A stretch of DNA of 64,000 nucleotides from an uncultured Myxococcales bacterium. Lineage in GTDB: Bacteria > Myxococcota_A > UBA9042. The stretch covers positions 11,871-75,870 of the forward strand of contig CAISBR010000131.1 in the NCBI GenBank assembly GCA_903883645.1, read 5' to 3'. Within the stretch, counting starts at the first letter, position 1, and each line of letters begins with the position of its first letter. Below the pieces are notes generated by a model. It was not told the DNA's origin. It did no database searches and worked only from the letters and a program-made list of their open reading frames with translations. This document shows positions 6,472 through 53,811 of this stretch, piece by piece. The position numbers and the translations under genes are program-made.

Positions 6472-8450
6472 GGCGCCTCCTGTTTCGGCCCGTCGAGCGG
6501 CAGGTCGATGGTAAAGGTGGTGCCCACGCCGAGCTGCGACTCAACACTCAGCTGTCCGCCATGTAAAGCAATGATTTGATGGGCAATTGATAGGCCAAGG
6601 CCCGTACCTTTGCCTTCCTTTGTCGAAAAGAACGGGTCGAAGATGCGGTCGAGATTCTCGCGCGGAATGCCGCAGCCGTTGTCGGCGATGACGACGCGGG
6701 CGCGCTGGTTGGCGTCGCGATGGGCGCTGACCCGCAGTGTCGGGTGGGGCACGCCGTCGAGCGCGTCGAGAGCATTGAGCAGTAAATTGACCAGAACCTG
6801 CACCAACTGCCGGCCATCACAGCGAATCGCGCCCAGATCGGCCTGGATATTCTCGTCGAGCTGCACTGTAGACGACCGCAGCCGATATCCACACATGCCC
6901 AGCGCCTCTTGCAGTAGGTCCGCCAGCGATTCGTCGCCAAAGCGGTTGTGCCCCGGCCGTGCAAACTGCAAGAAACGGTCCAAGATCTGAACACCTCGCT
7001 GATTTTCGCTGCGAATGGCGGCAATGTCGGGCGTGCGGTCGTCGTCGGCGGGCGTGGCGCGGGCCAGCAGCCCGGCAAAGCCTTGGATCGCGTGCATCAC
7101 GTTGCCGAGCTCGTGGGCCAGGCCCGCCGCAATCGTTCCGAGCGAAACCAAGCGGTCGTGGCGGCGCAAACGCTCTTCCAGCATGCGGTCGGCCGTCACA
7201 TCCGTCACGATGAGCACCGCGCCCAATGAACGGTTGCCCTGGCCGAGCAGCGGGTAGGCGTGGATGGCGAGCTGCCGCTGGGTAGGGCCACTGGCCTGTT
7301 CGCCGTCGCCGGTCGATGGATCATACATCCTTGAAATTTCGAACTTTCTCCCCTTGCGTGTATGGATTACCTCTTCGACCGTACGCCACAGCGGCTCGCC
7401 CTCGGGCACGATCTGTGCCAAGTGCATGCCGGGCTCGGGCTTCGACAGCCCCGCTAGCTGGCGACTCGCAGACTGGTTGACCTGTACGACCTCGCCGGCC
7501 AAATCACATGTTAACACGCCCTCTTCCATCGCACGGAACACCGACTCAAGGTAACGCGCCGTCTCGCGCAGCTCGGCCGTCACATCGTCGACGCGCTGGC
7601 GCAGGCGCGCACTCTGCAGCTGCAGCTTGTCGAGCAGGTCGGCGTTTGCCGCGCGCTGTTCTTTCAAAGCATCGACCAACTGCCCAAATCGATACTGCAA
7701 TTGACCGATCTCGTCGCGTGAAGTGGGGGCGATGGCGACTTGATCGAATTTGCCCTCGGCCACGGCTTCGGCCGCCTTGCCCAACTGTGCCAAAGGATTG
7801 GTAATTCTTCGCACATATACCGAGGCCAGGGCCGAGCCCACTAGCATCCACAGCAGCGCCATCGCCAGGGCAACTGCAGTTAAATGAAAGCTTTTTTCGG
7901 CCAGCACCGTCGAGCGAAAAACCAGGTTGATGTTGCCTACGATCTCGCTACCGCGCGCAATCGGCGCCCCAACCTCGTACATCGCATCGTCGCCGACCAG
8001 CGCCGCCAGACCTGGACTGCGCCGTGGTGTCCGAAATGCACCAAATGGCTGCGTTATTTGCGGTTCACGCCCCGGGCGCTTGCGCGACGCCAGCACCTTG
8101 CCGGCGCGGTCGCTCACCACTACCTCGACCACATCGACGGTCTTGTCGAGCCGGTCAAAGAGCAGACCAAAGGCCCTTTCGGTCGGATTCTCGAGCAGCG
8201 CCACCGCACTCGTGGCCACGCTCTGGGCAACGATGGTGCCGTCGCTCAGCACATGCTGGTCCATATCCGTGATTTCGCTCGATAACCACACCAAGGTCTG
8301 GCCGAGCAGCACCAGGCAAATCACGCCCGACATCAGCACGACCAGCTTGGTGCCGAGACTTATCGGTGCGCCACGGAGCCACGCCATCGCTGTTAACCAC
8401 GGCCGCAGACTCAGCTTCATGACTGGCCTCGCATGGGCAAGCTGTGGCAT
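6468..8450 (-). CDS. Transmembrane sensor histidine kinase (TM, HAMP, PAS, HisKA, HATPase_c)
   Basis: H-box [15 protein letters not shown]; N/G boxes [22 protein letters not shown]...GTGLGLSIA. Alternative start ATG at 8420 forms an ATGA overlap with the stop of the upstream cytochrome gene. Confidence 0.85.
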
Positions 8451-9439
8451 TTTTCGCAGGGCAAGGTATTCATGCCCGCGGGGGCGGTGCGCGGTCTGCG
8501 TCGTTCAGGGCGACCGCCCTCGGCGCTGCTGGGCGAGACATCGGGCGGCAAGCGGATGCCGGGTGGCAAGGTCTTGAAATCGCTGTTGTCGTGGCACTCG
8601 CGGCAGGCGCTTAAGCTCACGCGCCACAGGTGTGGTTTGTGGCAGTCGCCGCAGTTGCTGTGGTCGGCGATGTCGTGGATGGCCGACGGCAGCTTGCGCT
8701 TGTGGCAGCTGGTGCAGGCGACGATGCGGTCTTGGCCCTTGCCGTGTGGGCGGTGGCAGGTGCCGCAGCCCAGGTTAGCCATGTGGTGATCCTTAGAGTA
8801 ATCGGGCACATAAATGCCCCTCGCGCTGTGGCAATCGATGCACTGCGCCTGCGACGGCAACAGATCATCGCGCTTGGTACGAAAATCGTGGCACGCGTTG
8901 CAGTGCAGCTTCGACATGCCGGCGATGCGCACCTGCTCTTCGTGGCACTTGCCGCACGCATCGAGCGGGTCTACGTTCTTGTGCATCGACGCGCCGTGGC
9001 ACGAGTCGCAGCGCACATTGGGCTGGCGCAGGTGCAGGGCATGGCCGGCCGACACGTGGATCGGCGCATGGCCCGGCATCGGCTTGCCATGGCACGCGGT
9101 GCACGCACTCATCGGCACTTTGGGCGAATGTACGGCGGCCACAGAGCCCGGCTTGGTCGGATCGCGGCCACTCGCATAGGCCCTCAGCATCTCGGCGGCC
9201 TGTTCCAAGGTCTGGTGGTGGCAGTCTTGGCAGGCCACATCGTGGTGCGCGCTTTTTTGCCAAAGCTGGTACTGCTCTTGCGGCTCGTGGCAGTTGGCGC
9301 AAAATTGCGAGTCGTGTTCAACACTATGCACCACCTGCCGCCAGCTTGCGTAGGCAGCCACCACGAACACGATCCCGGCCGCTAGCCACCACCGCATACG
9401 CGGCGACAGTGCGGGTTGGCTTGGCTCCTCTCTGTCCAT
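8417..9439 (-). CDS. Membrane-anchored dodecaheme c-type cytochrome
   Basis: N-terminal TM helix (WWLAAGIVFVVAAYASW) and 12 CxxCH motifs in ~300 aa (CANCH, CQDCH, CTACH, CDSCH, CGKCH, CNACH, CIDCH, CGTCH, CTSCH, CGDCH, CRECH, CEKCH). The heme density resembles c7-type polymer cytochromes. Confidence 0.85.
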   Translation of the reverse strand: MDREEPSQPALSPRMRWWLAAGIVFVVAAYASWRQVVHSVEHDSQFCANCHEPQEQYQLWQKSAHHDVACQDCHHQTLEQAAEMLRAYASGRDPTKPGSVAAVHSPKVPMSACTACHGKPMPGHAPIHVSAGHALHLRQPNVRCDSCHGASMHKNVDPLDACGKCHEEQVRIAGMSKLHCNACHDFRTKRDDLLPSQAQCIDCHSARGIYVPDYSKDHHMANLGCGTCHRPHGKGQDRIVACTSCHKRKLPSAIHDIADHSNCGDCHKPHLWRVSLSACRECHDNSDFKTLPPGIRLPPDVSPSSAEGGRPERRRPRTAPAGMNTLPCEKCHSLPMRGQS

Positions 9440-34066: not shown

Positions 34067-35740
34067 GTGACACTCTTGAGACAGAAACGCGCAGTTGCAG
34101 CGCGGGTGATTGGGCCGACCTGGCAGCCGTGCTATCGTCGTGCTGCCCGCCGTAGCGGGTCGATGGCGCCCATGGCCCGCCGCGGCATTAAACCCCCTGA
34201 AAAGAAAACGAGTCGCCCGGCCGCAACGCTGGGGTCGCCGCTGCTGACGGGCGAAGTGGGCACCCTGTGGCGGCGCGCGCCGACGGAAGTGGTGCTGTGC
34301 TACGCCAACAGCTACCGCGTGGCTGCGTCGAGCCTGGGCTTTCAGCTCATTTACCGCGAGCTGAACCGTCGCGACGATATGGCCTGCCACCGCGCCGTGT
34401 TCGAGCCTCTCGCGGTGCGCGGGCCGTTGCCGCCGATTCGCTCGCTCGAGTACGGCAAGCGCCTCGACGACTACGATGCGATCTTGCTGTCGCTGGCCTA
34501 CGAGCTTGATCTGGCGAATCTTGCTTTGATGCTAGAGGCTTGTGGCCTGTCGCCCCTGGCGAGTGAGCGGCCGGAGTCGGCGCCGCCGCTGATTGTGGGT
34601 GGGCCGGTCACGACCTCGAATGTGCTGCCGCTGGCCGTGTTTGCCGATGTGGTGGTCATGGGCGAGGCCGACGAGCTGATTGTGCAACTGACCGATGTGC
34701 TGGCGCAGCGACCGTCGCGGGCTGAGTTGCGGCGCTGGGCGCTGACGGTGCCGGGCCTTTGGGTGCCGGCAGAGCAGGGCGATGCGGTGCCGGCGCTGCT
34801 GCCGGTGGGCGCGCATTGTCTGCCAGCTTTGGGGCAATTTCGCAGTCCGAATGCTGAGTTTAGCGACATGATGCTGCTCGAGGCGAGCCGTGGCTGTCCG
34901 CGCTATTGCAGCTTTTGCGTGGTCCGCGCCCCCTTGGCGCCGATGCGCGAGCCCGAGCTTGATCGCGTGGTGGCAGCGCTCGATCGCCCTGAATTTGCTT
35001 CGAGTCCGCGGGTTGGCCTTGTGGGCGCGGCCGTGAGCGACTGGGGGCCGATCAAGGGCGCGATGCGCGCCATCATCGAACGTGGCAAAACCTTTGGAAT
35101 TTCGAGCTTGCGGGCCGATCGCTTGGACGAAGACGACGAGTTTGTCGACTTGTTGTACCAGGGCGGTTACCGAACCATGACAGTCGCGTCGGATGCCCCC
35201 AGCCAGCGCATGCGCAACAAGCTGAAAAAAGGTATTCGCGAAAGGCACTTATGGGGCTCGGCCCTGCAGGCGCGGCGCGTGGGCATGAACGGCTTCAAGA
35301 TGTATCTGATCATCGGTTTGCCGGGCGAAGAGGCCGAAGATATCGACGAACTCATCGCGTTTTGCCAGCGCTTGTCGACGCAGGTGCGCACCGCGATTAC
35401 ACTATCGCCCTTTGTGCCCAAGCTGCATACCCCGCTGGCGGCGGCGGAATTTGCCGATCCCGACGCGACCCAGGCGACGTTGCGGCGCATTCAGGCGGCC
35501 CTGGCCGAGCGGGTGGATGTGCGCTTCGACGCGCCGAAGTGGGCCTGGGTCGAGTATCGGCTGAGCCAAGGTGGCATGGCGACAGGGCTTGCCGCGATCG
35601 AGGCTGCGCGCAATGGCGGTGGATCAACGGCGTGGCGGCGGGCGTTGGCGGCCCTGGATGCTCGCGATGCTACAGAAGAACGAGCGGCACTGGCGGCGGC
35701 GGAGCGGCACAAACTGTGGCCGGCGACCGGCGAACGCTGA
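34067..35740 (+). CDS. B12-binding-domain radical SAM protein
   Basis: N-terminal cobalamin-binding-like Rossmann segment, radical SAM cluster motif SRGCPRYCSFC (Cx3Cx2C). Alternative start 34163. Confidence 0.7.
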   Translation: MTLLRQKRAVAARVIGPTWQPCYRRAARRSGSMAPMARRGIKPPEKKTSRPAATLGSPLLTGEVGTLWRRAPTEVVLCYANSYRVAASSLGFQLIYRELNRRDDMACHRAVFEPLAVRGPLPPIRSLEYGKRLDDYDAILLSLAYELDLANLALMLEACGLSPLASERPESAPPLIVGGPVTTSNVLPLAVFADVVVMGEADELIVQLTDVLAQRPSRAELRRWALTVPGLWVPAEQGDAVPALLPVGAHCLPALGQFRSPNAEFSDMMLLEASRGCPRYCSFCVVRAPLAPMREPELDRVVAALDRPEFASSPRVGLVGAAVSDWGPIKGAMRAIIERGKTFGISSLRADRLDEDDEFVDLLYQGGYRTMTVASDAPSQRMRNKLKKGIRERHLWGSALQARRVGMNGFKMYLIIGLPGEEAEDIDELIAFCQRLSTQVRTAITLSPFVPKLHTPLAAAEFADPDATQATLRRIQAALAERVDVRFDAPKWAWVEYRLSQGGMATGLAAIEAARNGGGSTAWRRALAALDARDATEERAALAAAERHKLWPATGER

Positions 35741-35838
35741 AACCCGCACCCCGAGCACGCCTTGCCAGTTGTCGAACGGCGGCAGTAACTGCATCCTATG
35801 GTGAGTCGGGCCGGCCAGCCCGCAGCCGAGGCTACGCC

Positions 35839-38800
35839 GTGCTCCCAACCCATCGCAGAATTCTTTCACTGTGGTTTCAAGTGCTTCTTAGCCTTGTGGC
35901 CGTATTTGCGACCGCCAGCTGCGGCGACGGTGCCTCGAGCCACCCCTGGGCCATCACCGGCGTACCGTGCCCAACCAGCAAAAGCCGCTGCGCCGAGCTG
36001 TGCGTCGACCTGAAGGCGGACCCCATCAACTGCGGCGAATGCGGCCACGGCTGCGGCCTGGGCGAGGTCTGCTCGCTGGGCAAGTGCGCGCTGTTCTGCG
36101 CCGACCCCTTGGTCGACTGCGGTGGCCTGTGCGCCGACCTTCGCACCGATGTGGCCCACTGCGGCACCTGCTCGACCGGTTGCCCCAAGGGCAGCGTGTG
36201 CCAAAACAGCAAGTGCGAGCTCAGCTGTATCGACGGCGATGTACCGTGCGGCGGCGCCTGTGCCAACTTGCAGGCGGACCCCAAGCACTGCGGCAAGTGC
36301 GAAAAATCGTGTGTCGGCGAAGAGTTCTGCAGCTCGGGCGAATGCAAACTGCCGTGCACCGGCGGCCAGCTGCAGTGCGGCGACAAGTGTGTCGATCTAG
36401 CGAGTGACGTAAGCAACTGTGCCGGCTGCGGCCAGACCTGCCCCGCGGGCAACTGGTGCGTCAATGCCAAGTGCGTGCCCACGTGCCAAGTTGGCATGGC
36501 GGAGTGCGGTGCGGCGTGTGTCGACCTAGATAACGACTTGAATCACTGTGGCAATTGCGACAAGGTCTGCGCGGCTGGCCAAGTGTGCAGCAAGGGGCAA
36601 TGCACCGCCGCTTGTGCCACGGGCCAGATCGAGTGCGGCGGCAAGTGCAGCGACCCCAAAGAGGATTCAACCCATTGTGGCGACTGCGAAACAGCGTGCA
36701 AGGCCGGCCAGTTGTGCTCGGGCGGCAAGTGCACACTGTCGTGCCAAGAAGGCCTGATTGATTGCGAGGGCGTGTGCGCCAACCCCAAGACCGACATTAC
36801 CCATTGCGGCGGCTGCTACCAACCGTGCGCCACCGGCAGCGTCTGTGTCGACGGCGCGTGCAGCTTGGCCTGCCCCGGCACCATGACCGGCTGCGAAGAC
36901 GGCCTGTGCGCCGACTTGACCACCGACCCCTTGCACTGCGGCAGCTGCAGCACCGTCTGCGCACCCGGCGAGAAGTGCACCGGCGGCAAATGCCTGCTGT
37001 CGTGCCAGAGCGGTTTTGAAGTGTGCGCGGGCACTTGCGTAGACTACGCCAGCAACAACCAGCACTGCGGCGACTGCGAAACCAGCTGCGCCACCGGCCA
37101 GCAGTGCAAGAATGGCAAGTGCGTCCTCGACTGCCAGCCGGGCCTGAGCGCGTGCGGCGGCACCTGTGTCGACGTCTCGACCAACAACGCGAACTGCGGC
37201 GATTGCGACCAGCCATGTCCGCTCGGCCACGTCTGCCAAGCCGGCAACTGCAAGCTTAGCTGCCAGCAAGGCATGGATGAGTGCAGCGGCACGTGCAGCA
37301 ATCTGAAAACCGACGAATTGCACTGCGGATCCTGCGACAAGCAATGCGCGTCGGGCATGATCTGCGTCAACGGCAAGTGCACGCCCGACTGCCCGGTCAG
37401 CCAGGTCAATTGTGGTGGCAACTGTTCGGATTTGCAGGTAGACCACCAGCACTGCGGCGACTGCGACACGGCGTGCTCGTCGGGCGAAATCTGCTTTAGC
37501 GGCAAGTGCGTGTCGAGCTGCAAGTCGCCCCTGCTCGGCTGCGGCAACGTGTGCATCGACCCCAATTTTGACCCCAACAACTGCGGCGATTGCGGCCAAG
37601 TCTGCCAACTGCCCAACGCGGTAGCGCCGGCGTGCATGGGCGGGGCTTGCCAAGTCACTACGTGCCAAGACGGCTACGCCAACTGCGACAACCAGTCGGC
37701 GAATGGCTGTGAAATCGAGCTAAAATCAAGTGGTTTGCACTGCGGCGCCTGCAATAAGGTGTGCACGTTGTTCAAGGCCATCCCCTCGTGCCAAGACGGC
37801 AAGTGCGTCGTCACCGCGTGCGAAGAGGGCTGGGGCGACTGCAACGGCAACGCTGACGACGGCTGCGAGCAAGACCTGGGCACCTCGGCGGCCAACTGTG
37901 GCGGTTGCGGCATCAAGGTCGCGGCCGGCGAAGTTTGCTGCGGCGCCAAGCCCGTCGTGGGCAGCAGCTATGCCACCGACTCGAACAACTGTGGCGCGTG
38001 CGGCAACGTCTGTGGCAGCGGCCAGGTGTGCTGCGGCGGCTTCTGCTACACGGTCGACGGAAGCAAAATCTGCCCCGATTGCGGCAAGTTGTGCAACGTA
38101 GCCGAAGTCAGTGGCAACAAGTTCATCACCACCGGTGCGGTCAGCAAGCTAGAAGCGTCGGGTTCGGGCATTAGCACCGTATCGAACGAGGGCGGCAAGA
38201 ATCAGGTCGCCACGCCCCGGGTGTGGATCGCCGCCCACGACTCGAACTTGGTGAACCGCCTCGACACCGGGTCCGGCAAATTGATGAGCGTGTTCCCATC
38301 GTTCGGCAGCAATCCGTCGCGCGGCGCGGTGGCACTCGACGACACGTTCTGGATTGGCAACCGCTGCCCGAGCGACGCCAACAACCCCAAGTGCAGCAAC
38401 GTCGCGCAGTTGAACAGCGACGGCACGCTGGGCTGCTTGGTGGGCAACGCCGCTGACGGCGCGCCGCTGCCGCTGGTTCGGGCGATCGCGGTCGATGACC
38501 AGGGCTTTATCTGGCTCGGCACCTGGAACGACGCGCGTATCCACAAGATCGACCCGTTAGCCTGCAAAACGATTGCCGATTACACCGTTCCCGTCGGTGC
38601 TAGCCCTTATGGCTTCGCGATCGACAGCACTGGCTTGCTCTGGATCAGCAGCCCCAACGGCCCGACCGAGCCGCTCCGCTCGTTCGACACCAAGACCGGC
38701 AAGTTGGTCGACAGCGTAGCGCGCAACTCGAACACCTATGGCGTGGTGGTCGACGGCGATAGCAACGTGTGGTTCGCGTCGTGGTGCACGCCCAACGTGC

Positions 38801-39522
38801 TCGAAATCGACAAAAAGACCAAGGCGTTGACCACCCGCAGCATCGATGGCTTGCCCAGCCCGAGCCAATGGTGTGCGCGCGGCATGGCGGTCGATGTCGA
38901 CGGCAACGTATGGGCAGCCGTGGGCCGCTACAACAGCGATGCGTGTGCTGCCGGCGAGAGCTATGTAGCTAAGTACCAGAAAACTACTGGTAAATTCCTG
39001 GGTTTGTACAAGATCGGCGCTCCGTTCGGCGGTGGCGCGCTCGGCATCTCGATGGACGCCAACGGCCGCTTGTGGGTCACCAGCACCTGCACGAACAAGG
39101 CCGCGCGCATCAACAAAGACACGGGCGCTACCGAGCTCGTCGCCGATTTGTACGGCACCAACCCGTACACCTATTCGGATTGGACCGGCGCGATGCTGAA
39201 GAATGTGACGACGCACAACGGTCAAATGGGGCTGTGGACGGCGAATTTTGATGGAAATGCCGCGACGGCCCAGTGGCAGCAGGCCACCTACACCAGCGAC
39301 ATCCCGGCTGGCACGCGCATCCGCTTGCGCTTCCGGGCTTCGTCGGCCATCGAAGCGATCGAAGGTGCGACCTGGTGCGTGCCCGCCGAGACGTCGCCCG
39401 TAGACCTAAAGTCCTGCAATTTCGGGCAGAAGCGTTACCTGCAGGCCCAGGTGTACCTGATTACCAACGATGTGGATGTGCGGCCCACACTCGACAACTT
39501 CAAAGTCTACTGGCAGAACTAG
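35839..39522 (+). CDS. Giant lipoprotein: about twelve tandem 43-aa 8-Cys repeats plus irregular Cys-rich modules, with a C-terminal beta-propeller (Vgb/SMP-30-like blades)
   Basis: Re-called start GTG 35839, giving MLPTHRRILSLWFQVLLSLVAVFATASC (lipobox). Repeat C-x3-C-x6-C-x3-C-x(9-10)-HCG-x-C-x3-C-x5-C (for example CELSCIDGDVPCGGACANLQADPKHCGKCEKSCVGEEFCSSGE). C-terminal blades VDDQGFIWLGTW, STGLLWISS, DSNVWFASW, DGNVWAAVG, NGRLWVTST. The in-frame upstream 196 codons in the track overlap the previous gene and are rejected. Confidence 0.8.
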   Translation: MLPTHRRILSLWFQVLLSLVAVFATASCGDGASSHPWAITGVPCPTSKSRCAELCVDLKADPINCGECGHGCGLGEVCSLGKCALFCADPLVDCGGLCADLRTDVAHCGTCSTGCPKGSVCQNSKCELSCIDGDVPCGGACANLQADPKHCGKCEKSCVGEEFCSSGECKLPCTGGQLQCGDKCVDLASDVSNCAGCGQTCPAGNWCVNAKCVPTCQVGMAECGAACVDLDNDLNHCGNCDKVCAAGQVCSKGQCTAACATGQIECGGKCSDPKEDSTHCGDCETACKAGQLCSGGKCTLSCQEGLIDCEGVCANPKTDITHCGGCYQPCATGSVCVDGACSLACPGTMTGCEDGLCADLTTDPLHCGSCSTVCAPGEKCTGGKCLLSCQSGFEVCAGTCVDYASNNQHCGDCETSCATGQQCKNGKCVLDCQPGLSACGGTCVDVSTNNANCGDCDQPCPLGHVCQAGNCKLSCQQGMDECSGTCSNLKTDELHCGSCDKQCASGMICVNGKCTPDCPVSQVNCGGNCSDLQVDHQHCGDCDTACSSGEICFSGKCVSSCKSPLLGCGNVCIDPNFDPNNCGDCGQVCQLPNAVAPACMGGACQVTTCQDGYANCDNQSANGCEIELKSSGLHCGACNKVCTLFKAIPSCQDGKCVVTACEEGWGDCNGNADDGCEQDLGTSAANCGGCGIKVAAGEVCCGAKPVVGSSYATDSNNCGACGNVCGSGQVCCGGFCYTVDGSKICPDCGKLCNVAEVSGNKFITTGAVSKLEASGSGISTVSNEGGKNQVATPRVWIAAHDSNLVNRLDTGSGKLMSVFPSFGSNPSRGAVALDDTFWIGNRCPSDANNPKCSNVAQLNSDGTLGCLVGNAADGAPLPLVRAIAVDDQGFIWLGTWNDARIHKIDPLACKTIADYTVPVGASPYGFAIDSTGLLWISSPNGPTEPLRSFDTKTGKLVDSVARNSNTYGVVVDGDSNVWFASWCTPNVLEIDKKTKALTTRSIDGLPSPSQWCARGMAVDVDGNVWAAVGRYNSDACAAGESYVAKYQKTTGKFLGLYKIGAPFGGGALGISMDANGRLWVTSTCTNKAARINKDTGATELVADLYGTNPYTYSDWTGAMLKNVTTHNGQMGLWTANFDGNAATAQWQQATYTSDIPAGTRIRLRFRASSAIEAIEGATWCVPAETSPVDLKSCNFGQKRYLQAQVYLITNDVDVRPTLDNFKVYWQN

Positions 39523-39539
39523 GTCAAAAGCGGGGCTCT

Positions 39540-40088
39540 GTGAAGAACATTCTTGTGCTGCTAGCCGCCGTCGCGCTGACCGTGCTGGCGTGCCGGCCCG
39601 CCCAGACTGCCGCCCATCCGCCGCATTATGCTGTGCAATATCCAAATGGTCCGCCAACTGGCATGGCGATTTGCGAAGTTGAACTGGCGGGGCGAGTTAG
39701 CGAGACGGTGACCGGCAATCGCGCGATTATCACCTATGTCAGCGAAGGCGATTGTCTGGCGCCCGAGGCGCGCATCTTGGCCCGCTCGCCGGCCCTGGGT
39801 GACGGTGAGTTTTTTGCTGAAGTTTTCGTGCCTTGTGGCACCAAGCTGGGGATATGCGCCAGCGTAGAGCCGCGCGTGAACCCGGACCAAGTGCCGCTGG
39901 CGAGCCGCCACTATGCCGCGCTGAATCGGCTGCTGACAGCGCAAGGATCTGGCGAGATTGAGTTTTTTGGGCTTGCTTGGGCGATGCGCGATGCGGACGA
40001 GAAGACCTTTGCCGCGCCGCGCCCCTATTTTGAGCGGCCCGGGGATCAGCCGCAGCGGGCGGACCCGCGACCGCTGCCTGCGCATTAA
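39540..40088 (+). CDS. Small lipoprotein, hypothetical (co-directional with, and 18 nt after, the giant lipoprotein)
   Basis: GTG 39540, giving MKNILVLLAAVALTVLAC (lipobox), 182 aa. Confidence 0.5.
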   Translation: MKNILVLLAAVALTVLACRPAQTAAHPPHYAVQYPNGPPTGMAICEVELAGRVSETVTGNRAIITYVSEGDCLAPEARILARSPALGDGEFFAEVFVPCGTKLGICASVEPRVNPDQVPLASRHYAALNRLLTAQGSGEIEFFGLAWAMRDADEKTFAAPRPYFERPGDQPQRADPRPLPAH

Positions 40089-40105: not shown

Positions 40106-40525
40106 CTATTTGCAGGTCTTGTTGACGCAGGCCAGGCCGGCCGGGCACTCGCAGTCGACCTGGCAGGCGGTGGTGGGCGCGAGCGAGACGGAGCAGTAGC
40201 CGCTGATGCAGCTCTCGCCCGTGTGGCATTCGCAGCTCGCCTTGCAGCGCAGCAAGCAGAAGCTGCCGACGCAGTCCTCGGCCGCGGCGCAATCCTGATT
40301 CTTGCTGCAGGTATACGTGGTGCTGGTGACGACCGTGTCGGTGGCGCTGCTGGCGTCGGCGCTGCTGCCTTTGGCGCTGCTGCCTGTGGCGTCGGCTGCC
40401 TTGTCTTTGTCGCAGCCTAGATTCATACCTTCGCCGGTGTAAGTCTCGATATTGCAACCGCCAAGGCCCGCCAGACCAGCGATCGTGACCGCGCCAACTA
40501 CCCAACTCGAAATCGCCAAACGCAT
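40106..40525 (-). CDS. Small Cys-rich lipoprotein (about 13 Cys in the C-terminal 70 aa)
   Basis: ATG 40525 with AGGAGG RBS; MRLAISSWVVGAVTIAGLAGLGGC lipobox; Ser/Ala/Thr-rich linker; CSKNQDC...CVGSFC...CKASCEC...CISGYC...CQVDCEC...CVNKTC. Confidence 0.55.
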   Translation of the reverse strand: MRLAISSWVVGAVTIAGLAGLGGCNIETYTGEGMNLGCDKDKAADATGSSAKGSSADASSATDTVVTSTTYTCSKNQDCAAAEDCVGSFCLLRCKASCECHTGESCISGYCSVSLAPTTACQVDCECPAGLACVNKTCK

Positions 40526-40765: not shown

Positions 40766-41419
40766 GTGGCGGGCACTCAGGGGCAGATGGCAACGGTGCC
40801 GTCGCGTTGTGGTGTGCGCATGATCCTGCCTGTGCTCGCAGTCGAGGCCCAAATGTGGTGGCGGCGTAGCCCCGGCCCGGTGCTGGATGAGCTGAGTCAA
40901 CGGCTGCAATCCGGCGATTCTGTTGCGCTTGGACAGGCTTACGACCTGCATCACGCCGCAGTACGGGCCTTTGCCCGGCGGCTGCTCGGCGATGCGGATG
41001 CGGCCGAAGACCTGGTGCAAGATGTGTTTGTCACGCTTCCCAAGGCGATACGGCGCTTTGACGGGCGATCGGCGCTGCGCACTTTTGTGCTGGGGATTGC
41101 AGTGCGGCACGCCCAACATCACCAGCGGGCCCTGGCGCGGCGGCAGCGGGCGTGGCGGCGCAGTGGCGACGTTGAGAGGACGCACTCCGCGAACCCAGAA
41201 GCGCAATGTGGCGAAAATGAACTTGCGGCGGCCTTGGCGCGGGCCCTAGAGCAACTGCCGATCGACCAGCGTGCGGCGTTTGTCTTGTGCGAGATCGAAG
41301 AGCGCACGGCGGGCGAAGTGGCGACCATTGTCGATGCCCCCGAGGCGACGGTGCGGACACGCTTATTCCACGCTCGCAAGAAACTGCGCGAGGCATTGGA
41401 GCGGGAGGGACTGCGATGA
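40766..41419 (+). CDS. ECF-family RNA polymerase sigma factor
   Basis: Region 2 (LVQDVFVTLPKAIRRFDGRSALRTFV) and region 4 (LEQLPIDQRAAFVLCEIEERTAGEVATIVDAPEATVRTRLFHARKKLRE). Start may be 40850. Confidence 0.8.
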   Translation: MAGTQGQMATVPSRCGVRMILPVLAVEAQMWWRRSPGPVLDELSQRLQSGDSVALGQAYDLHHAAVRAFARRLLGDADAAEDLVQDVFVTLPKAIRRFDGRSALRTFVLGIAVRHAQHHQRALARRQRAWRRSGDVERTHSANPEAQCGENELAAALARALEQLPIDQRAAFVLCEIEERTAGEVATIVDAPEATVRTRLFHARKKLREALEREGLR

Positions 41420-42201
41420 CTGACGACGAACTGCTGCAGCGCGCGATAAAAGCATTGCGCGATGAAGAGTTGGGCGATGCTCCGGCGGGGGCTCGGCATC
41501 GTATGCTGCAGGCCGCTGGGCGGGCGCGCAAGCTCGAGACGCGGCAGACTGTGGTCACCTTGGCCCTTGGTTTGGCACTTGTGGCCTCGACGGCGGCGGC
41601 GACGGGGCAGCTACAGCGGGCGGTTGCGGCGCTTAAAGCGGTGGTGGCGCCGGTGGTACCCGCGCCGCAGGTGGTCGTGCCGCAGAAGTCTAACGCTCGA
41701 GCGGGTCATTACGCCGCGAATTTGATGCGGATTACGCCCAGCATGCCCGCTTGTGCGACGCCGACGGCCACTGTTGCGCAAGTGCCTGTAGACGAAGCTG
41801 CAGCGGTGTCGCCGCGCGAGCGTGAGTCGGCTCCACATACGACAAGTGATCGCCATGTAGGAAGAATGCGCGTTGCGCCTGTCGCACTAGAGGCCCTGCC
41901 TGAACTCGCTTCGACCGACGAGGCGCTGCAGCAGTTCCGCGTTGCCCAACGGCTGCACGCCCAGCACCAGTGGCAGGCGGCCTTGGCGGCGTGGGGCAAG
42001 TATTTACAACTAGTTCCGAGCGGCGAGCTCGCCCCCGAGGCGCGTTGGAGTCGTGCGCAGTGCCTGGTTCGCCTGGGGCGGGGTGCCGCGGCGCAGGCCG
42101 CGCTGCAGCCATTTGCGAGCGGTGCCGAAGGCGGTTACCACCAGGCCGATGCCGCAGAGCTGCTGCAGGCGCTGGCCAACCCGTCTGAGCCCACCCAGTA
42201 G
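41416..42201 (+). CDS. Putative anti-sigma factor (single TM, periplasmic C-terminal domain)
   Basis: ATGA overlap with the sigma-factor stop; N-terminal cytoplasmic helix, TM segment VVTLALGLALVASTAAATG, TPR-like C-terminus. Confidence 0.5.
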   Translation: MTDDELLQRAIKALRDEELGDAPAGARHRMLQAAGRARKLETRQTVVTLALGLALVASTAAATGQLQRAVAALKAVVAPVVPAPQVVVPQKSNARAGHYAANLMRITPSMPACATPTATVAQVPVDEAAAVSPRERESAPHTTSDRHVGRMRVAPVALEALPELASTDEALQQFRVAQRLHAQHQWQAALAAWGKYLQLVPSGELAPEARWSRAQCLVRLGRGAAAQAALQPFASGAEGGYHQADAAELLQALANPSEPTQ

Positions 42202-42213
42202 CCGGGAGACCCC

Positions 42214-43764
42214 ATGAAACTGCAGATGTCGACAGGACTTGTTTGGCTGCTCGTGCTGCTTGCGGCGGCGCTGCCGGCGTGGGCGCAGGGCCAGGTGGCG
42301 CCGAACACGGCTCTGGTGCTCGACGTCGCGCGTGCCCCGCAGCTGCCGACCGCGCAAGTGTTGGCCGCAGCTTTGGAAGCGGAGCTTGCTATTCACGTCA
42401 GCCTGTTTCAGGTGGTGGGCCAGCAGACGGCGCGGCTGAGCGTGGCTGCCGCCGGGCCGAATCGGGCTAGGGTGGCCTTTTTGTTGCCTGGACGGCCACT
42501 TGTGGGGCGCGAGGTGCAGCTGCCGCGCGACCCCATGCGCGCCGTGGATACGCTGACTTTACTGCTGGCCAACATGGTTCACTCTGAAGCGGGCGAGCTG
42601 CTGGCGAGCTTGCGTGCGGTCAAGAGGTCTGAACTGGCTGCGCCGCCAGTAGTTTTGGAGCCGCCCCCTGCTGTGCCGGCGCCAGCGCCGCCGACCCCTG
42701 TGGCGCTGCTGCCGCCGCCTGCCGACCCTACGCCCATCGCGCAGCCTTCTGCGGCTACGCCCGTCGATTTTGCGGCCGATGGGCTGCGCACCGTGTTGCT
42801 TGGTGTTGACCTAGTGCCCGGAATTACCTTTCCGCCGGCGCCCTTTGAAGGCACTGTGCGTCGCTTTTCGTTTGGCGGCATTACCTATTCAAGCGGGCTC
42901 GATGGCATGGAAGCCGCAGCCATTGGCACTCTGCATAGCGGCGATGTAAAGGGCGGACAGTTTTCGTCTGTTTTTAACGCGGTGCGTGGCGATGTGCGCG
43001 GTTTTCAGGGCGCCTCGTCGCTCAATGTGGTGGGGGGCAAGCTCCATGGCGCGCAGCTGTCGAGTGGCGCGAATCTGGCCGGCGAGGTCGACGGTGGCTT
43101 ACAGATGGCGGTGTTTAATGGAGTCCTTCGGTCCATGCGCGGCGCGCAACTCGGCGTAGCCAATGCGGTAGCTGGGCCGGTCGCGGGTCTACAACTCGGC
43201 CTTGTCAACCTAGCGGGCGAGCATGTGCACGGCGCTCAGATTGGCCTTGTCAACCTGGGCAAGTCGGCTGACGCGGGAATCGGCCTACTTTCGCTGTATT
43301 CAGATGGTCGCAGCCATGTGCAGGCTTGGACCGACGGGGCACTTGGGGCGACAGTTGGCGTAGAGCACGGCAGCAAGCGGATGCATAATCTGTTCGCAGT
43401 GGGGGCGCAACCGGTCAGTAATGCTGGGCATTGGCAACCGCACGCCGGTCTGGGCCTGGGCATCCACCTGCAACCCAAAGATTGGCTGACTGTAGATTTT
43501 GATGCGCTTGAAATGGTGCGCTACGACCGTGATCGCAGCGACTGGTTCGCCGAGACGCAGCTGCGCGTGGTGGGTGGCGTGCGTCTGTTCAGTAGCGTGC
43601 GGCTGATCGGCGGCCCGACTTGGGCGGTGCGCGTGGCGGGCGTCGGTGCGCATCTGACTACGGTGGTTGATGGGCGCAACGCCATGGTACGGTTCAACAT
43701 TTCGGACCGGGGTGCGCGGGTGGCGATGGACCTGGGCTGGTTTGTCGGCTTGTCGGTGTTTTAG
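42214..43764 (+). CDS. Secreted repeat protein with Gly/Gln-rich G-x-Q-x-G-x-x-N repeats; hypothetical
   Basis: Signal peptide MKLQMSTGLVWLLVLLAAALPAWA; Pro-rich linker; C-terminal repeats GAQLGVANAVAGPVAGLQLGLVNLAGEHVHGAQIGLVNLG; 12 nt after the anti-sigma gene. Confidence 0.55.
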   Translation: MKLQMSTGLVWLLVLLAAALPAWAQGQVAPNTALVLDVARAPQLPTAQVLAAALEAELAIHVSLFQVVGQQTARLSVAAAGPNRARVAFLLPGRPLVGREVQLPRDPMRAVDTLTLLLANMVHSEAGELLASLRAVKRSELAAPPVVLEPPPAVPAPAPPTPVALLPPPADPTPIAQPSAATPVDFAADGLRTVLLGVDLVPGITFPPAPFEGTVRRFSFGGITYSSGLDGMEAAAIGTLHSGDVKGGQFSSVFNAVRGDVRGFQGASSLNVVGGKLHGAQLSSGANLAGEVDGGLQMAVFNGVLRSMRGAQLGVANAVAGPVAGLQLGLVNLAGEHVHGAQIGLVNLGKSADAGIGLLSLYSDGRSHVQAWTDGALGATVGVEHGSKRMHNLFAVGAQPVSNAGHWQPHAGLGLGIHLQPKDWLTVDFDALEMVRYDRDRSDWFAETQLRVVGGVRLFSSVRLIGGPTWAVRVAGVGAHLTTVVDGRNAMVRFNISDRGARVAMDLGWFVGLSVF

Positions 43765-43970: not shown

Positions 43971-44059
43971 TTTCTAAGCTGCCTACGCGGCAGTGAACGA
44001 GATGGCCCAGCAGGATGCGCTCACGGACCTTCTTCTAAGCTGCCTACGCGGCAGTGAAC
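43971..44059 (-). CRISPR. Orphan CRISPR mini-array: two repeats matching the type I-F consensus (28 bp) flanking one ~33-bp spacer; no cas genes in the window
   Basis: Plus-strand repeats tttctaagctgcctacgcggcagtgaac (43971-43998) and cttctaagctgcctacgcggcagtgaac (44032-44059). The reverse complement, GTTCACTGCCGCGTAGGCAGCTTAGAAA, matches the I-F consensus including the CUGCC-N5-GGCAG hairpin. Spacer 43999-44031. Confidence 0.55.
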
Positions 44060-44125
44060 ACCTGCAGGCCTTGCGCATCACAGCGTCAAGAAGGCACTCG
44101 GTCGATAGCGGATCGCTGTAGCCCA

Positions 44126-44222
44126 TCGAGTGCTCAACGCCTTACGGCAGCACGGCGACAAGAAGCTTGGCGCCTACACCAGATGGTGTAGATTGTGTCG
44201 TGCTCAACGTCTTACGGCCAGT
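44126..44222. repeat. Pair of degenerate ~24-bp direct repeats (tcgagtgctcaacgccttacggcag / tcgtgctcaacgtcttacggccag), possibly decayed CRISPR repeats
   Basis: 44126-44150 and 44198-44222; the core gcct-tacgg-cag resembles gcctacgcggcag of the neighbouring I-F repeat. Confidence 0.3.
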
Positions 44223-44322
44223 ACAGCCCCAGGCCAATCGGCAACTTGGCCCGCTGGCGCCTTGCACAGCGAAATCGACAGCCTTGGCAGCGGCTGCGGT
44301 GCCATGTCAAGAATCTCTGGCG

Positions 44323-44796
44323 TTAAGGCAACGAGCGCACTTGGCGCCTGCCCGACCCTTCAGTAGGGCATCGGCCAAATCCGGCCCATGGACCATCATC
44401 GGTTTCCCCTTGTGAATACAATGCAATGGCCTGCCATCCAAAGGATACCAGCCGCTCCACCAAGCCCAGCAGCGACCCCAACGCGCCCCTCCACGCCGCG
44501 TAGCCCATAGGGTCCACAATCAGCAAGGGCCCGTTCGCCCAGCACGGCGTCTGCATCCCCGGCTGGCCACCGGCAAGCGCCAAACGAGCGAACGTTTGCA
44601 GCCGCGGCACGGCATCCGCGCGGGCTAAGTGCAGCTGTAGATGCCACCCGCCGCCGTCGCGGGCAGGCTGTTCACGCACCCGACTCCACGGCGAATTCTG
44701 CAAAATCGCTACCAAAAGGTCGGCACGCGCTCGGCCCTCGATGGGCTGCGGCTCGCCATAATGCCGATACACCGTGTCGATTTGCTCGCCGGTCAT
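44323..44796 (-). CDS. Hypothetical protein
   Basis: ORF only; no motif recognised. Confidence 0.3.
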   Translation of the reverse strand: MTGEQIDTVYRHYGEPQPIEGRARADLLVAILQNSPWSRVREQPARDGGGWHLQLHLARADAVPRLQTFARLALAGGQPGMQTPCWANGPLLIVDPMGYAAWRGALGSLLGLVERLVSFGWQAIALYSQGETDDGPWAGFGRCPTEGSGRRQVRSLP

Positions 44797-44993
44797 GCCA
44801 GACGGCTCAACAGCTTGAACTGGCTAGTACCGCTTGGCGGCAGTGGCTTGGCCCGGCGTGCGAGCGCTTGCAAGCCGGTGAGCCAGGCGCCGCAACCGAG
44901 CTAGCCGATGTGCGGTTTTCGTGCGATGCCGCGGTTGGAGTAGGTGTTTCCTTTGGTTCTAAAGAGTTGTAATGCCTATGGCGCAATGGCGAT

Positions 44994-45056
44994 TTCTGCT
45001 GGCCCTGTGGCTGCTTCTGCTGGCCCTGTGGCTGCCTCTGCTGGCCCTGCGGCTGC
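44994..45056. repeat. Three copies of a 21-bp tandem repeat (ctgctggccctgtggctgcyt)
   Basis: Direct reading; encodes LLALWLL (+ strand) or PQGQQ(K/R)Q (- strand) heptads. Coding status uncertain. Confidence 0.6.
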
Positions 45057-45273
45057 GGTGGCAGCACCGCGTACCCGACCTAGTTGGCGTGTTCGCACGG
45101 GTCAAGCGCAAGCAGCGCACGCAGTTTTGTCGGGAACATCACGGGTTACAACCCGTCGCTGGGCCCCTAGCGCCGCTTGAGTTCGCGCTGCCTGTCATTG
45201 CTGCGGTGCGCCGGGGCTTAATTTGATGCGGAGGCCGATCTGTGACCGTTCGCCCGGAGTTGCGCCTTGTTCG

Positions 45274-45684
45274 CTACATCAACAGCAGGAACACGGCGCC
45301 AGCCGCGGCCGCCATGCGCCCACCGCCCTCGATAATTGCGATGACCTTGCCATATTTCGAGTCGCCCCGAATGACTTTATCTCCATCAAGAATTGCGATG
45401 ACTTTGCCGTATTTCGAGTCCCCAGCGATCAACTTTTCGCCATCGACGAGCGCAATCACTTTGCCATACTTCGAATCGCCGCCAATGACCTTTTCTCCGT
45501 CGACGAGGGCAATCACTTTGCCGTACCTGGAGTCTCCGGCTATCAGCTTGCCGTCCTCAAAGACCGCAATTACTTTGCCATACTTCGAGTCTCCGGCGAT
45601 CACCTTACCAAGCGCCCAAGCAGGCGAGGCCGCGCACACGCCGATTGCCATTGCCAGCCAGAAGTGCAGTAGTTTTTGATACAT
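45274..45684 (-). CDS. Small secreted protein composed of six tandem 19-aa repeats (GDSKYGKVIALVDGEKLIA)
   Basis: ATG 45684 with GAGGGG RBS; signal peptide MYQKLLHFWLAMAIGVCAASPAWA; 57-bp DNA periodicity; lower local GC. Confidence 0.6.
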   Translation of the reverse strand: MYQKLLHFWLAMAIGVCAASPAWALGKVIAGDSKYGKVIAVFEDGKLIAGDSRYGKVIALVDGEKVIGGDSKYGKVIALVDGEKLIAGDSKYGKVIAILDGDKVIRGDSKYGKVIAIIEGGGRMAAAAGAVFLLLM

Positions 45685-45890
45685 CGAGTGTCACCCCTCT
45701 GCCTTGACCATGGTTGCTGGCCTCTTTGGCTGGGCTCCGCCGTGCATCCGCCCGCGTGGGGCGTAGTGTCGCGACAACCTCAGCCTGTATCTGCTCTTGG
45801 CGCCTATCAGCGGCGTCCCTATATCCTTGTTGTAACTGTGGTCTTGCCGTCGTTCAGCGGCCAAGTACCGCCGTCGTGCCGGGCACCACC

Positions 45891-46349
45891 CTAAACCCCA
45901 GCCGGATACCCAACAACCCCAACCTCAATCCCCGCCCGCGACAGCCGCCCCGGCTCAATCGCATTCGTTCCAACAGGATCGGTCTCGGTCCACGCGTGCC
46001 CTTGGCCATAGCCGCTCTCGACACAAAACGCGTGCCGCCACGCCGCCACCAGTCGACGACCAATGTAAAGTCGCGAAATCACCCAGCCTTCCGTCAGCAC
46101 GTCGCACTGCTGGTCCACATGGTAGCGCTGCCGCACCTTGACCGGCCGCTTGCGCTCGGCCAGCTTGCCCACCAGCCACCGCGCCGTAGCGACCGAATTG
46201 TCGCCGTATTCATCCAATTCGTCCGCCAGCAGCAACTCCAGCAGCTGCCGCGCCTGCTTATCGCGAATCGGCTTGTCGGGCACATCGGGAATCAGCGGCG
46301 CATTCTTGTCTGCATAAGCGTAAGGATAATCAGTTGGTTGACTCGACAC
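45891..46349 (-). CDS. Hypothetical protein (cargo of the accessory region)
   Basis: Start re-called to GTG 46349 (GGAGGTG RBS); no motif recognised. Confidence 0.4.
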   Translation of the reverse strand: MSSQPTDYPYAYADKNAPLIPDVPDKPIRDKQARQLLELLLADELDEYGDNSVATARWLVGKLAERKRPVKVRQRYHVDQQCDVLTEGWVISRLYIGRRLVAAWRHAFCVESGYGQGHAWTETDPVGTNAIEPGRLSRAGIEVGVVGYPAGV

Positions 46350-46422
46350 GGGGCACCTCCAAGAAGTTTGAACTGCAGGTACCCTGGCACTTTTCGCCAC
46401 CGAGTGCCAGGGCATTTTTCGC

Positions 46423-46803
46423 CTACCTCTGCTGCGCCAGCCACGCGTCGAACTCCGCCCGCCGCCCCTTCACAGCAAGCTCGTTGACTGCCCCGCACCG
46501 ACATAGCACCACGTAACCCACTGGCTGGCTTGCAATAAATGCATTCGGCTGCGTCAACACCACCGGCACCAGCTTCCCACAGGTCATGCACGGCGCGACA
46601 AGGGTCACATCCGCCACCGCCGCCAACACCGCGTCCCGCCTATGTTTTGCCCCAACTGTGTTATCCGTCCGCGCCACCTCAGCCAGGCGCTTAGCAATCG
46701 TGTTGCGATGCACGCCAGTGCGCTCGGCAACCTCAGCAATCGAGTACCCAGCTTTGTGGTCCTTCAGCAGCATATCCACAACTTCCTTCTTGAGTTTCGC
46801 CAC
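46423..46803 (-). CDS. Small HTH DNA-binding protein with a C-terminal Cys4 cluster (MGE regulator / excisionase-like?)
   Basis: GTG 46803 with GAGAGGTG RBS; HTH GYSIAEVAERTGVHRNTIAKRL; CMTCG...CRCG. Confidence 0.5.
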   Translation of the reverse strand: MAKLKKEVVDMLLKDHKAGYSIAEVAERTGVHRNTIAKRLAEVARTDNTVGAKHRRDAVLAAVADVTLVAPCMTCGKLVPVVLTQPNAFIASQPVGYVVLCRCGAVNELAVKGRRAEFDAWLAQQR

Positions 46804-46850
46804 TTTACACACCTCTCGTTTGCCGCTCGCTTCAGCATTAAGAGTCCATT

Positions 46851-46990
46851 CGCTGGCCGTCGGTAGCCTGTCTGTCTGCGAGTTCGAGAAACGCCTGCCG
46901 CGACGAGTGGCACGCGCTCGGCCGGCCGGCGGATCTGGCCGCGATGGAGTTGATCGAGGCGCGGTTGTGGGTGCGGCGCCGGCTGGGTAG
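46851..46990. repeat. ~140-bp block duplicated at 50582-50716 (about 88% identity; this copy has a 1-nt indel)
   Basis: Both copies were aligned by eye: ctggccgtcggtagcctgtc(t/c)gtctg...gagtggcacgcgctcggccggccggcgga...atggag...gatcga...tag. Confidence 0.6.
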
Positions 46991-47179
46991 GGCAGAGGAA
47001 GGGTGGGTTGCGCTGGATTGCAGTGTCGTGGCCGCCCGGTTCGGGCCCACGGACCTACACCAGCGGCACGAAAGCCCGCGGTGGCACCTGCACATTCTGC
47101 CCGTCGGGATAATTGCGCCGGCGCATATGCCATCACTACAACTGGCGGTCACTGAGGCCATGCCGGCGCGCCGCGGCCG

Positions 47180-47556
47180 CTAGTTGTCGCGTTGCCATTC
47201 GCACTTGCCGGAAAATGGTCTAAAGGCAGGAGTAATCGCCTTTATAATTAGCTGGTTTGCCCTTTGGTTGTTGCCAACCATTCCCGACTCGACCGTCGCT
47301 ACTCGCTGACCTCGTTTGAGCTTGCCACACGCGACGCCATCGGTGCTATCGAGCGTCAGCGCATACCCCTTGCCTGCCAGGGTCAGGCGGCCCGTCACGC
47401 AGCACGCGTTGCCGGCGCAAAGCTCAATCGCCGTGGATCGGGTGTCGAACTTGGCCGTAAGCTGGTTGCCGGCGCAGTCGTAGACACCATCGACGGCGCC
47501 CGCAGCGGGCTGGCTTGTTGCGGCAATGGCCAACACTATAAGATGAAACAGGTAGG
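47180..47556 (-). CDS. Small secreted protein, hypothetical
   Basis: GTG start with AGGTGAA RBS, signal peptide MPYLFHLIVLAIAATSQPAAGA, six Cys; low-GC context. Confidence 0.4.
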
Positions 47557-47668
47557 GCACGGTATTCACCTGAACCAGCACCGAGCTGGCGAAACAGAAT
47601 TGCCCCGAGCGTAGCCAGACTTGGCCGCCACGTCGAGAGGGTGGGCCCGGCTCCATTGGCGTCAGCGC

Positions 47669-48577: not shown

Positions 48578-48586
48578 CGCCCGCTA

Positions 48587-48605
48587 CCAGGATTCGCACA
48601 GGGCC
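48587..48605. repeat. Degenerate att-like copy of the tRNA-Arg 3' end (ccaggattcgcacagggcc versus cctggattcgaaccagggacc)
   Basis: It sits just 5' of the truncated integrase, mirroring the tRNA/integrase arrangement at 53.5-53.8 kb. Confidence 0.35.
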
Positions 48606-48708
48606 GATGCGCGCGCAGCACTCTGCGGGTGATGGGCCACCGGGACCATGTATGACCGTTGCTGCCACGAGACCGATCGATCATGCCTAAAGTCGCCTAC
48701 AATAACAT

Positions 48709-53737: not shown

Positions 53738-53811
<74 letters not shown>

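Follow-up and report, generated by a model that had tools for sequence, protein, structure and literature searches.

A giant cysteine-rich propeller lipoprotein beside a radical SAM gene in an uncultured myxobacterium: client or neighbour?

Does a radical S-adenosylmethionine (SAM) enzyme encoded next to a very large cysteine-rich lipoprotein act on that lipoprotein, or do the two genes simply lie side by side? The question is raised by a 64,000-nucleotide stretch of DNA from an uncultured Myxococcales bacterium (contig CAISBR010000131.1), called the window here and numbered from its first letter. A sequence-only reading had described a cobalamin-dependent radical SAM gene, a giant lipoprotein of periodic cysteine repeats with a C-terminal propeller, and a trailing 182-residue lipoprotein; it proposed that the enzyme might modify the lipoprotein and named an unrelated neighbour as the alternative. 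The ORF (open reading frame) list and translation show all three genes, on the same strand. The radical SAM gene lies in a maximal ORF of 34067..35740, and its likely start, the ATG at 34172, gives a 522-residue protein (34172..35740, +) in agreement with the public gene call of the identical contig. The giant lipoprotein gene was correctly placed at 35839..39522 (+), although its product has 1227 residues and not 1228, and the small lipoprotein gene follows at 39540..40088 (+). The first two genes are separated by 98 nt (35741..35838), as had been described, and the second gap is 17 nt rather than 18. On balance, we lean towards the view that the enzyme gene and the lipoprotein genes are two independent units, and that their adjacency reflects genome rearrangement and not an enzyme-substrate pair.

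Gene neighbourhoods were compared at loci retrieved with a profile of 16 orthologues of the enzyme, comprising 68 loci from species-representative genomes and 63 metagenome loci, with 10 duplicates. Genes at these loci were called with a crude caller based on GC content at third codon positions, chosen since high-GC DNA gives many shadow ORFs. Lipoprotein homologues were sought within 10 kb on either side of the enzyme gene, using tblastn with the two halves of the lipoprotein and a hidden Markov model (HMM) of its 43-residue unit. The Stig1-type repeat of the lipoprotein was found near the enzyme gene at only two of the 68 genome loci (L001 and L002) and at none of the 53 further metagenome loci. 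Among about 115 loci with an orthologue of the enzyme, these two alone have the Stig1 lipoprotein next to it. At these two loci the enzyme is 87-89% identical to that of the window, and the whole region is collinear, running through RNase J, thiolase, DUF2254, the radical SAM enzyme, the lipoprotein and the small lipoprotein. The nearest outgroup, P0002 (L138/L139), whose enzyme is 72% identical, keeps the RNase J-thiolase-DUF2254-radical SAM backbone, collinear with window positions 24.5-35.7 kb in blastn. At L138 the stop codon of the enzyme is followed, after a 1-nt gap, by a 230-residue HlyIII gene, and then by the orthologue of a convergent 139-residue small cysteine-rich lipoprotein, which in the window is encoded at 40106..40525 (-) according to translation and the public gene call and forms the distal edge of a variable slot. 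Directly after HlyIII, L138:12238-12382 shows 82% nucleotide identity to window positions 40136-40280, the 3' end of the 139-residue gene. Since the flanks are shared and the content differs, the 4.25-kb cassette at 35839..40088 and HlyIII are alternative occupants of one slot.

In other lineages the same slot holds an HDAC-like gene, a permease, glycogen phosphorylase, a 1231-residue secreted protein, or a PpiC lipoprotein with pheS, and such unrelated occupants often begin 0-4 nt from the enzyme gene. It is because the slot carries unrelated genes in related genomes that we ascribe the adjacency seen in the window to rearrangement. Basal members of the enzyme's own clade show a backbone of a TPR protein, an M20 peptidase, the radical SAM enzyme, the variable slot, a PpiC lipoprotein and pheS. 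The genomic context is that of a vertically inherited core gene bordering a rearrangement-prone slot, and the enzyme gene probably belongs, in a single copy, to the core genome of an uncultured freshwater lineage of Myxococcota. A 366-residue minus-strand ORF of the window was considered as a homologue of the 373-residue TSP_3 gene found downstream of enzyme orthologues and was rejected (E 1.3), the real gene there being that of the 139-residue lipoprotein.

The lipoprotein genes, in turn, are found together elsewhere. In three close orthologues of the giant lipoprotein (P0148, P0149 and P0150; stalk about 48% and head 74-77% identical), a homologue of the small lipoprotein lies directly downstream, at 48-57% identity and at distances ranging from overlap to about 240 nt. 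No radical SAM gene was present in the visible flanks of these loci, which extend upstream for about 70 nt (L073), about 600 nt (L074), 4.8 kb (L069) and 8 kb (L072), or at the locus of P0219, a relative with a head 41% identical. As orthologues keep the small lipoprotein without the enzyme, the conserved unit is the lipoprotein pair. The cassette is probably transcribed as one unit, given the 17-nt gap in the window and the overlap in orthologues. The small lipoprotein, with the lipobox LTVLA-C, was correctly recognised earlier as a lipoprotein, and the lipobox is conserved across a family of about 180-residue proteins with a Pro/Ala-rich linker and four conserved cysteines. The family numbers 94 representative clusters among 1.84 billion proteins, and no relative was found in Pfam or the PDB. 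At two loci (L069:18-4628 and L072:3118-7638) the cassette orthologues adjoin a divergently oriented gene for a cysteine-rich protein of about 1500 residues with RCC1/WD40 and Dicty_CTDC/Somatomedin_B matches; giant cysteine-rich surface genes thus group together in these genomes.

The idea that the window pair represents enzyme and substrate thus found no support: the pair persists outside the window in L001 and L002 alone, is already lost at 72% enzyme identity in the outgroup, where HlyIII takes its place, and the lipoprotein occurs elsewhere without the enzyme. The enzyme gene is retained in many genomes that have no Stig1-type lipoprotein beside it, for this gene pair the outcome that the sequence-only reading had named as refuting its idea; outside L001 and L002 the one exception is a distant locus, L145, described below. 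The unrelated-neighbour alternative is therefore the better supported of the two, though not proven. Co-occurrence analysis gave a divided answer, since synteny with the Stig1-type lipoprotein was not conserved, but other cysteine-rich lipoproteins did recur beside the enzyme.

The enzyme consists of a predicted B12-binding-type, Rossmann-like N-terminal domain (Radical_SAM_N2, PF19864; 90 bits, 1e-25) and a TIM-barrel core (Radical_SAM, PF04055) with a single CxxxCxxC motif, RGCPRYCSFC. The only cysteines invariant among the 16 orthologues are C246, C250 and C253, none being conserved outside the motif, and neither SPASM nor PqqD/RRE families were among the Pfam matches (E<=0.01). On sequence grounds we describe the protein as a one-cluster enzyme with a B12-binding-type N-terminal domain. 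The best NCBIfam model, TIGR03960 'B12-binding radical SAM', gave 158.7 bits, below its cut-off of 462.3, and the remaining class-B radical SAM models gave less than 45 bits; a PF02310 B12-binding match was recorded in some orthologues only. The label 'cobalamin-dependent' was therefore too strong for an enzyme that can be described as of the B12-domain type. The nearest solved relative is MgmA (PDB 9CCB), a remote one (E 1e-4 with the single sequence, 9e-13 with a profile), and the profile match runs from the N-terminal part of the enzyme into its core. MgmA is a B12-radical SAM enzyme that C-methylates a glutamine of methyl-coenzyme M reductase (PMC11796369). Literature searches found no relevant work on PF19864, TIGR03960 or DUF2344.

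A sister clade (46-52% identical; one member with 181.6 bits against TIGR03960) has a different setting. There the enzyme gene runs in the same direction as genes for a family 2 glycosyltransferase (GT2), a NodB-type polysaccharide deacetylase and, in many cases, a MobA-like nucleotidyltransferase; stop and start codons mostly overlap, and hemW (convergent to the enzyme gene) and a PKD-domain lipoprotein lie downstream. These clusters are seen at loci L034-L062 and L096-L116 (for example L041:7748-11560), and the combination of GT2 and deacetylase recalls polyprenyl-phosphate aminosugar pathways (ArnC/ArnD, HpnI/HpnK/HpnJ). Such glycan-type neighbours may hint at the real substrate class of the enzyme. 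A second, unrelated radical SAM gene in the window (54006-55847, +; 613 residues, two Radical_SAM stretches) adjoins a tRNA-Arg/integrase junction.

The giant lipoprotein begins at a GTG preceded, 8 nt upstream, by a GAGG that is conserved in L001 and L002. Its signal peptide and lipobox (..VFATAS-C28; 35839..35922, +) were read from the sequence; C28 is conserved in P0148-P0150, P0201 and P0219, and the lipobox predicts a lipoprotein of the signal peptidase II type. The protein contains 139 cysteines, in keeping with the earlier count of more than 100. Twelve repeats of eight cysteines in fixed register span residues 51-567 (35989..37539, +), as had been proposed, but the period is not strictly 43 residues, since eleven units have 43 and one has 44. 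The unit HMM detected 12 domains on the stalk at 51-58 bits, followed by weak domains 13-16. These correspond to four or five degenerate or variant cysteine modules that extend to residue 752 (residues 568-752; 37540..38094, +) and carry CPL1-like (a sub-threshold Pfam match) and C..GY.NCD...GCE motifs. The stalk matched Pfam Stig1 (PF04885) over 15 stretches with 222.7 bits (cut-off 24.1) and NCBIfam NF041328, 'MXAN_6577-like cysteine-rich protein', with 479.4 bits (cut-off 100); these scores assign the lipoprotein to the Stig1/NF041328 family, and chance is excluded as the source of the cysteine periodicity. Tandem Repeats Finder detected no DNA-level tandem repeat in the gene, and the units are therefore old and diverged.

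Both the repeat and the propeller could be modelled. For the stalk, AlphaFold2 was given a repeat alignment of six non-overlapping two-unit segments and returned, for two units, a ladder of short beta-hairpins with a predicted local distance difference test (pLDDT) score of 87. This model found no significant fold match in the PDB (best E 0.74), and only a weak likeness to TNFR and furin-like cysteine-rich domains was seen. At least 1461 proteins join the Stig1 stalk to one of many heads, among them fibrinogen-like, RCC1, LamG, SBBP, MopE, kinase and other domains, and this variety argues that the stalk is a generic presentation device. Literature searches found no paper on MXAN_6577 or bacterial Stig1 proteins.

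The head (residues 755-1227) was modelled from an alignment of 29 homologues with a mean pLDDT of 90.7 and a predicted template modelling score of 0.89. Its 28 strands form seven blades, which supports the seven-bladed propeller of the sequence-only reading (38218..39147, +), followed by a short helix and a roughly 100-residue beta-sandwich (39214..39519, +) that had gone unnoticed. An invariant PYTYSD motif (Y356-D360 in the head alignment) precedes the sandwich domain. The combined head has 26 detectable relatives. Its best Foldseek match in the PDB was 1L0Q, an archaeal S-layer YVTN propeller plus PKD fragment (E 6e-20), and BtuG1/BtuG2 (about 1e-12), Vgb lyase (2.5e-12, TM score 0.74) and YncE were matched as well. 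At 12-19% identity, these model-based matches indicate generic similarity among seven-bladed propellers.

Several observations weigh against the independence of enzyme and lipoprotein. Within the 98-nt spacer, a three-way alignment showed two islands kept in L001 and L002, GCAGTTGT and GCATCCTATGG, in addition to the GAGG ribosome-binding site. The islands were considered as sigma-70, sigma-54 or extracytoplasmic function (ECF) promoters and gave no convincing match, and a consensus scan of the spacer found no terminator-like or sigma-70-like site. As no terminator was detected, co-transcription of the two genes is possible. The localisation and binding function given to the lipoprotein below are, moreover, ones that we infer. 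A composition scan also revealed that many orthologues of the enzyme are flanked by other giant cysteine-rich lipoproteins unlike the Stig1 unit, of at least five non-homologous repeat families. Proteins of the Dicty_CTDC type (1150-1480 residues) lie downstream on the same strand at eight loci (L008, L010, L011, L014, L015, L023, L053 and L077); they are orthologous to one another (41-80% full-length identity), and the gaps are 21-200 nt. Their paralogues lie upstream at L025-L027, overlapping the start of the enzyme gene. A CGNGKCE/somatomedin-like lipoprotein is convergent to the enzyme gene at L003-L005, with L140 grouped with them by homology, other types occur at L017 and L035, and a TSP_3 type at L054. 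In the closest clade (>=55% identity), an adjacent giant cysteine-rich lipoprotein is present at 16 of 37 loci, whereas among the 250 non-adjacent genes encoding 200 residues or more at the same loci only 6 are cysteine-rich (Fisher p 6e-8, ignoring phylogeny). A neighbour-joining tree attributed most of this adjacency to descent within a few groups. When each neighbour family was counted once, the excess was 8/103 versus 8/368 (odds ratio 3.8, p 0.011). Two of the eight cases are truncated versions of families that are in the tally already, and leaving them out gives about 6/101. One pairing of the enzyme with a Dicty_CTDC protein stays co-directional across a deep clade while the flanks change.

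A separate case concerns the propeller family itself. At L145 (6001-11243) the order is P0201, a member of the same lipoprotein family with a Stig1 stalk and a head 38% identical over 480 residues, then a 266-residue lipoprotein with an FGE-sulfatase (formylglycine-generating enzyme-like, FGE-like) domain, and then, 4 nt on, a convergent radical SAM gene of the window family that is 41-48% identical to other members. This is the arrangement of the window with the cassette inverted. Two of five independent contexts of the propeller lipoprotein family are thus beside the enzyme, and the recurrence at L145 is hard to explain by chance. The FGE-like protein stands where the window has the 182-residue lipoprotein; homology between these two partners was considered and rejected. 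Cysteine-rich surface genes are clustered in these genomes, with three in about 40 genes of the window and several side by side at L069, L072 and L147. A second giant lipoprotein of the window, encoded at 61817-64000 (+) by a gene that runs past the window end, has the lipobox LSLAA-C, more than 100 cysteines and Dicty_CTDC repeats of the CDDGNPCT type (82.8 bits). Its identity to the CTDC lipoproteins adjoining the enzyme elsewhere is about 34%; its gene lies 26 kb from the radical SAM gene of the window, directly downstream of two Ser/Thr kinase genes (57806-61735, -).

These recurrences may indicate either that the variable slot is filled from the accessory gene pool, or that giant cysteine-rich lipoproteins in general are substrates of the enzyme family or depend on it for their biogenesis, for instance through C-methylation or another change of the unfolded cytoplasmic precursor before Sec export. 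In the latter case the client in the window would be the Stig1-propeller lipoprotein, and selection would repeatedly keep or bring one such gene beside the enzyme. We consider such a link unlikely, yet it has points in its favour: the neighbours recur in non-homologous families (Dicty_CTDC downstream at eight loci and upstream at three, CGNGKCE convergent at four, TSP_3 and others), the family-level excess is significant, the orthologous CTDC pair outlasts changes in its flanks, L145 combines the same two families at low enzyme identity, and MgmA methylates a protein. The enzymes anSME and QhpD, which modify proteins that are exported afterwards, are precedents. Most loci of the enzyme, however, including essentially the whole sister clade, have no cysteine-rich neighbour and carry glycan-type genes and hemW instead; the neighbour is missing from the nearest outgroup, and orthologues of the lipoprotein occur with no adjacent enzyme gene. 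About half of the juxtapositions are convergent and therefore cannot be operons, and unrelated occupants of the slot (HlyIII, HDAC-like, permease) are spaced equally tightly. No SPASM/twitch or PqqD/RRE match was found in the enzyme by Pfam, and no shared leader-like motif was seen on reading the termini of the clients. Because cysteine-rich surface genes are numerous in these genomes and lie in clusters, a slot filled from the accessory pool would often hold one, so that the same pattern could arise in the absence of any link; neutral decay could also leave one ancestral neighbour in place in two of many lineages.

Two further alternatives concern the head. Instead of being a binding module it could be catalytic, with the stalk displaying a lyase of the Vgb type or a hydrolase of the SMP-30/gluconolactonase type. 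The head had been called SMP-30/Vgb-lyase-like, and its fold does resemble Vgb, with sub-threshold Pfam scores for Vgb_lyase (PF24684; 43 bits, cut-off 50) and SGL (27.5 bits) and conservation of PYTYSD and of blade residues among homologues that are about 25% identical. The Vgb_lyase match covers profile positions 226-282 only, though, and NF000022 Vgb(A) reached 17 bits against a cut-off of 600; non-enzymatic folds, namely the S-layer YVTN propeller, BtuG, YncE and NHL domains, matched equally well or better. An enzymatic head is accordingly improbable in our estimate. It is more improbable by far that the head is a BtuG-like module capturing cobalamin at the surface, placed next to a B12-type radical SAM gene through a common cofactor need. 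BtuG1 and BtuG2, which are cobalamin-binding surface lipoproteins, were the second and third best fold matches (TM score 0.71), but at 15% identity, and the likeness is common to every seven-bladed propeller matched. The Dicty_CTDC neighbours at L011 and L014 contain only cysteine-repeat families and no propeller family in Pfam, and cobalamin use by the enzyme is itself putative.

With the two units taken as independent, the cassette can be pictured as a surface machine of its own. The giant lipoprotein would leave the cytoplasm through Sec, undergo cleavage by signal peptidase II and carry its lipid on Cys28, and its approximately 136 extracytoplasmic cysteines would oxidise in the envelope to give a rigid, disulfide-stapled rod of about 17 modules. 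Such a rod may hold the propeller and beta-sandwich head off the membrane, where the head could serve as a ligand-binding or adhesion module, and the 182-residue lipoprotein may be a dedicated partner of this protein with the role of anchor, chaperone or co-receptor. Just past the cassette (40853-43764, +) lie genes for an ECF sigma factor (188 residues), a 261-residue protein of no family, and a 516-residue LA_2272-surface-repeat protein. The 261-residue protein is possibly an anti-sigma factor, and this group could regulate envelope genes.

Other features of the window were noted in passing. A region at about 44100-53811 has a lower GC content (0.615-0.624), several ORFs with no Pfam match, and two tyrosine integrase genes (47669-48577 and 52375-53481, both -) beside tRNA-Arg(TCT) at 53737-53811; it is likely an integrated mobile element. 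Near its edge, at 43972-44059 (-), two identical CRISPR-DR4-type repeats of 27-28 nt (Rfam, 45.9 and 42.5 bits) flank one spacer of about 33 nt, and no cas genes were seen nearby; the pair is possibly a mini-array, degenerate or orphan, on the border of the lower-GC region. ORF 8417..9439 was considered as a cysteine-rich repeat lipoprotein and is actually a multihaem cytochrome. This multihaem cytochrome c (340 residues, c3/c7/NapC-type motifs) and a 579-residue multihaem cytochrome/cytochrome b561 fusion after it (8417-11841, -) point to an extracytoplasmic electron-transfer module.

The locus offers a well-modelled example of how surface proteins are built in uncultured freshwater Myxococcota: an exchangeable-head Stig1 stalk, here with a propeller, is combined with a dedicated small lipoprotein, and the whole unit moves between genomic slots as a cassette. 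The fold of the stalk and the family of the partner, neither with a match in the PDB, are both uncharacterised. The giant lipoprotein adds a member of well-supported architecture to a family that has a name but has not been studied, and the enzyme likewise belongs to an unstudied family. Should the family-wide link between the enzyme and cysteine-rich lipoproteins hold, it would reveal a new kind of radical SAM tailoring, directed at structural cell-surface proteins more than 1000 residues long and not at a ribosomally synthesised and post-translationally modified peptide, and would give the first functional handle on the PF19864/TIGR03960-like group.

Comparison with known systems places both halves of the locus. 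The analogy first drawn for the enzyme, that of a radical SAM gene beside a gene for a cysteine-rich exported protein, is with maturases such as anSME/AtsB, QhpD and the SCIFF, sacti- and ranthipeptide enzymes. Those maturases contain auxiliary clusters of the SPASM/twitch type, and enzyme and substrate are always conserved together; the window enzyme has the CxxxCxxC core and PF04055 in common with them, but neither the auxiliary-cluster domain nor the substrate co-conservation. With MgmA and the TIGR03960-type class-B enzymes it would share a predicted N-terminal Rossmann-like domain followed by the radical SAM TIM barrel, yet it falls well under every curated family cut-off, and its cobalamin binding is putative. 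Among propellers, 1L0Q is a cell-surface protein with the same propeller-plus-Ig-like-domain arrangement as the head, and BtuG is a surface lipoprotein among its best structural matches; at 15% identity the likeness is one of fold only, and no function is transferable. Within the NF041328/Stig1 family, which is named and uncharacterised, the window protein, by its sequence a member, sets twelve very regular units beside a specific propeller/beta-sandwich head.

The closest parallel to the cassette as a whole is TraA of Myxococcus xanthus, the kin-recognition receptor of outer-membrane exchange, for which a cysteine-rich 'rigid stalk' has been proposed and which is translationally coupled to TraB (PMC3325183). 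The parts differ. In TraA the PA14 head lies at the N-terminus and the MYXO-CTERM anchor at the C-terminus, whereas the window protein has an N-terminal lipobox and a C-terminal propeller and beta-sandwich; the repeats are of the TIGR04201 type in TraA and of the Stig1/NF041328 type in the window; and TraB is an OmpA-domain protein, in place of which the window has the 182-residue lipoprotein. PA14, TIGR04201, MYXO-CTERM and OmpA were all absent from the Pfam and NCBIfam matches of the window proteins. The window cassette is thus best regarded as a functional analogue only, with no sequence homology. What the two myxobacterial systems would have in common is the plan: a lipid anchor, a stalk of cysteine-rich tandem repeats, a head (variable in TraA), and a coupled partner gene.

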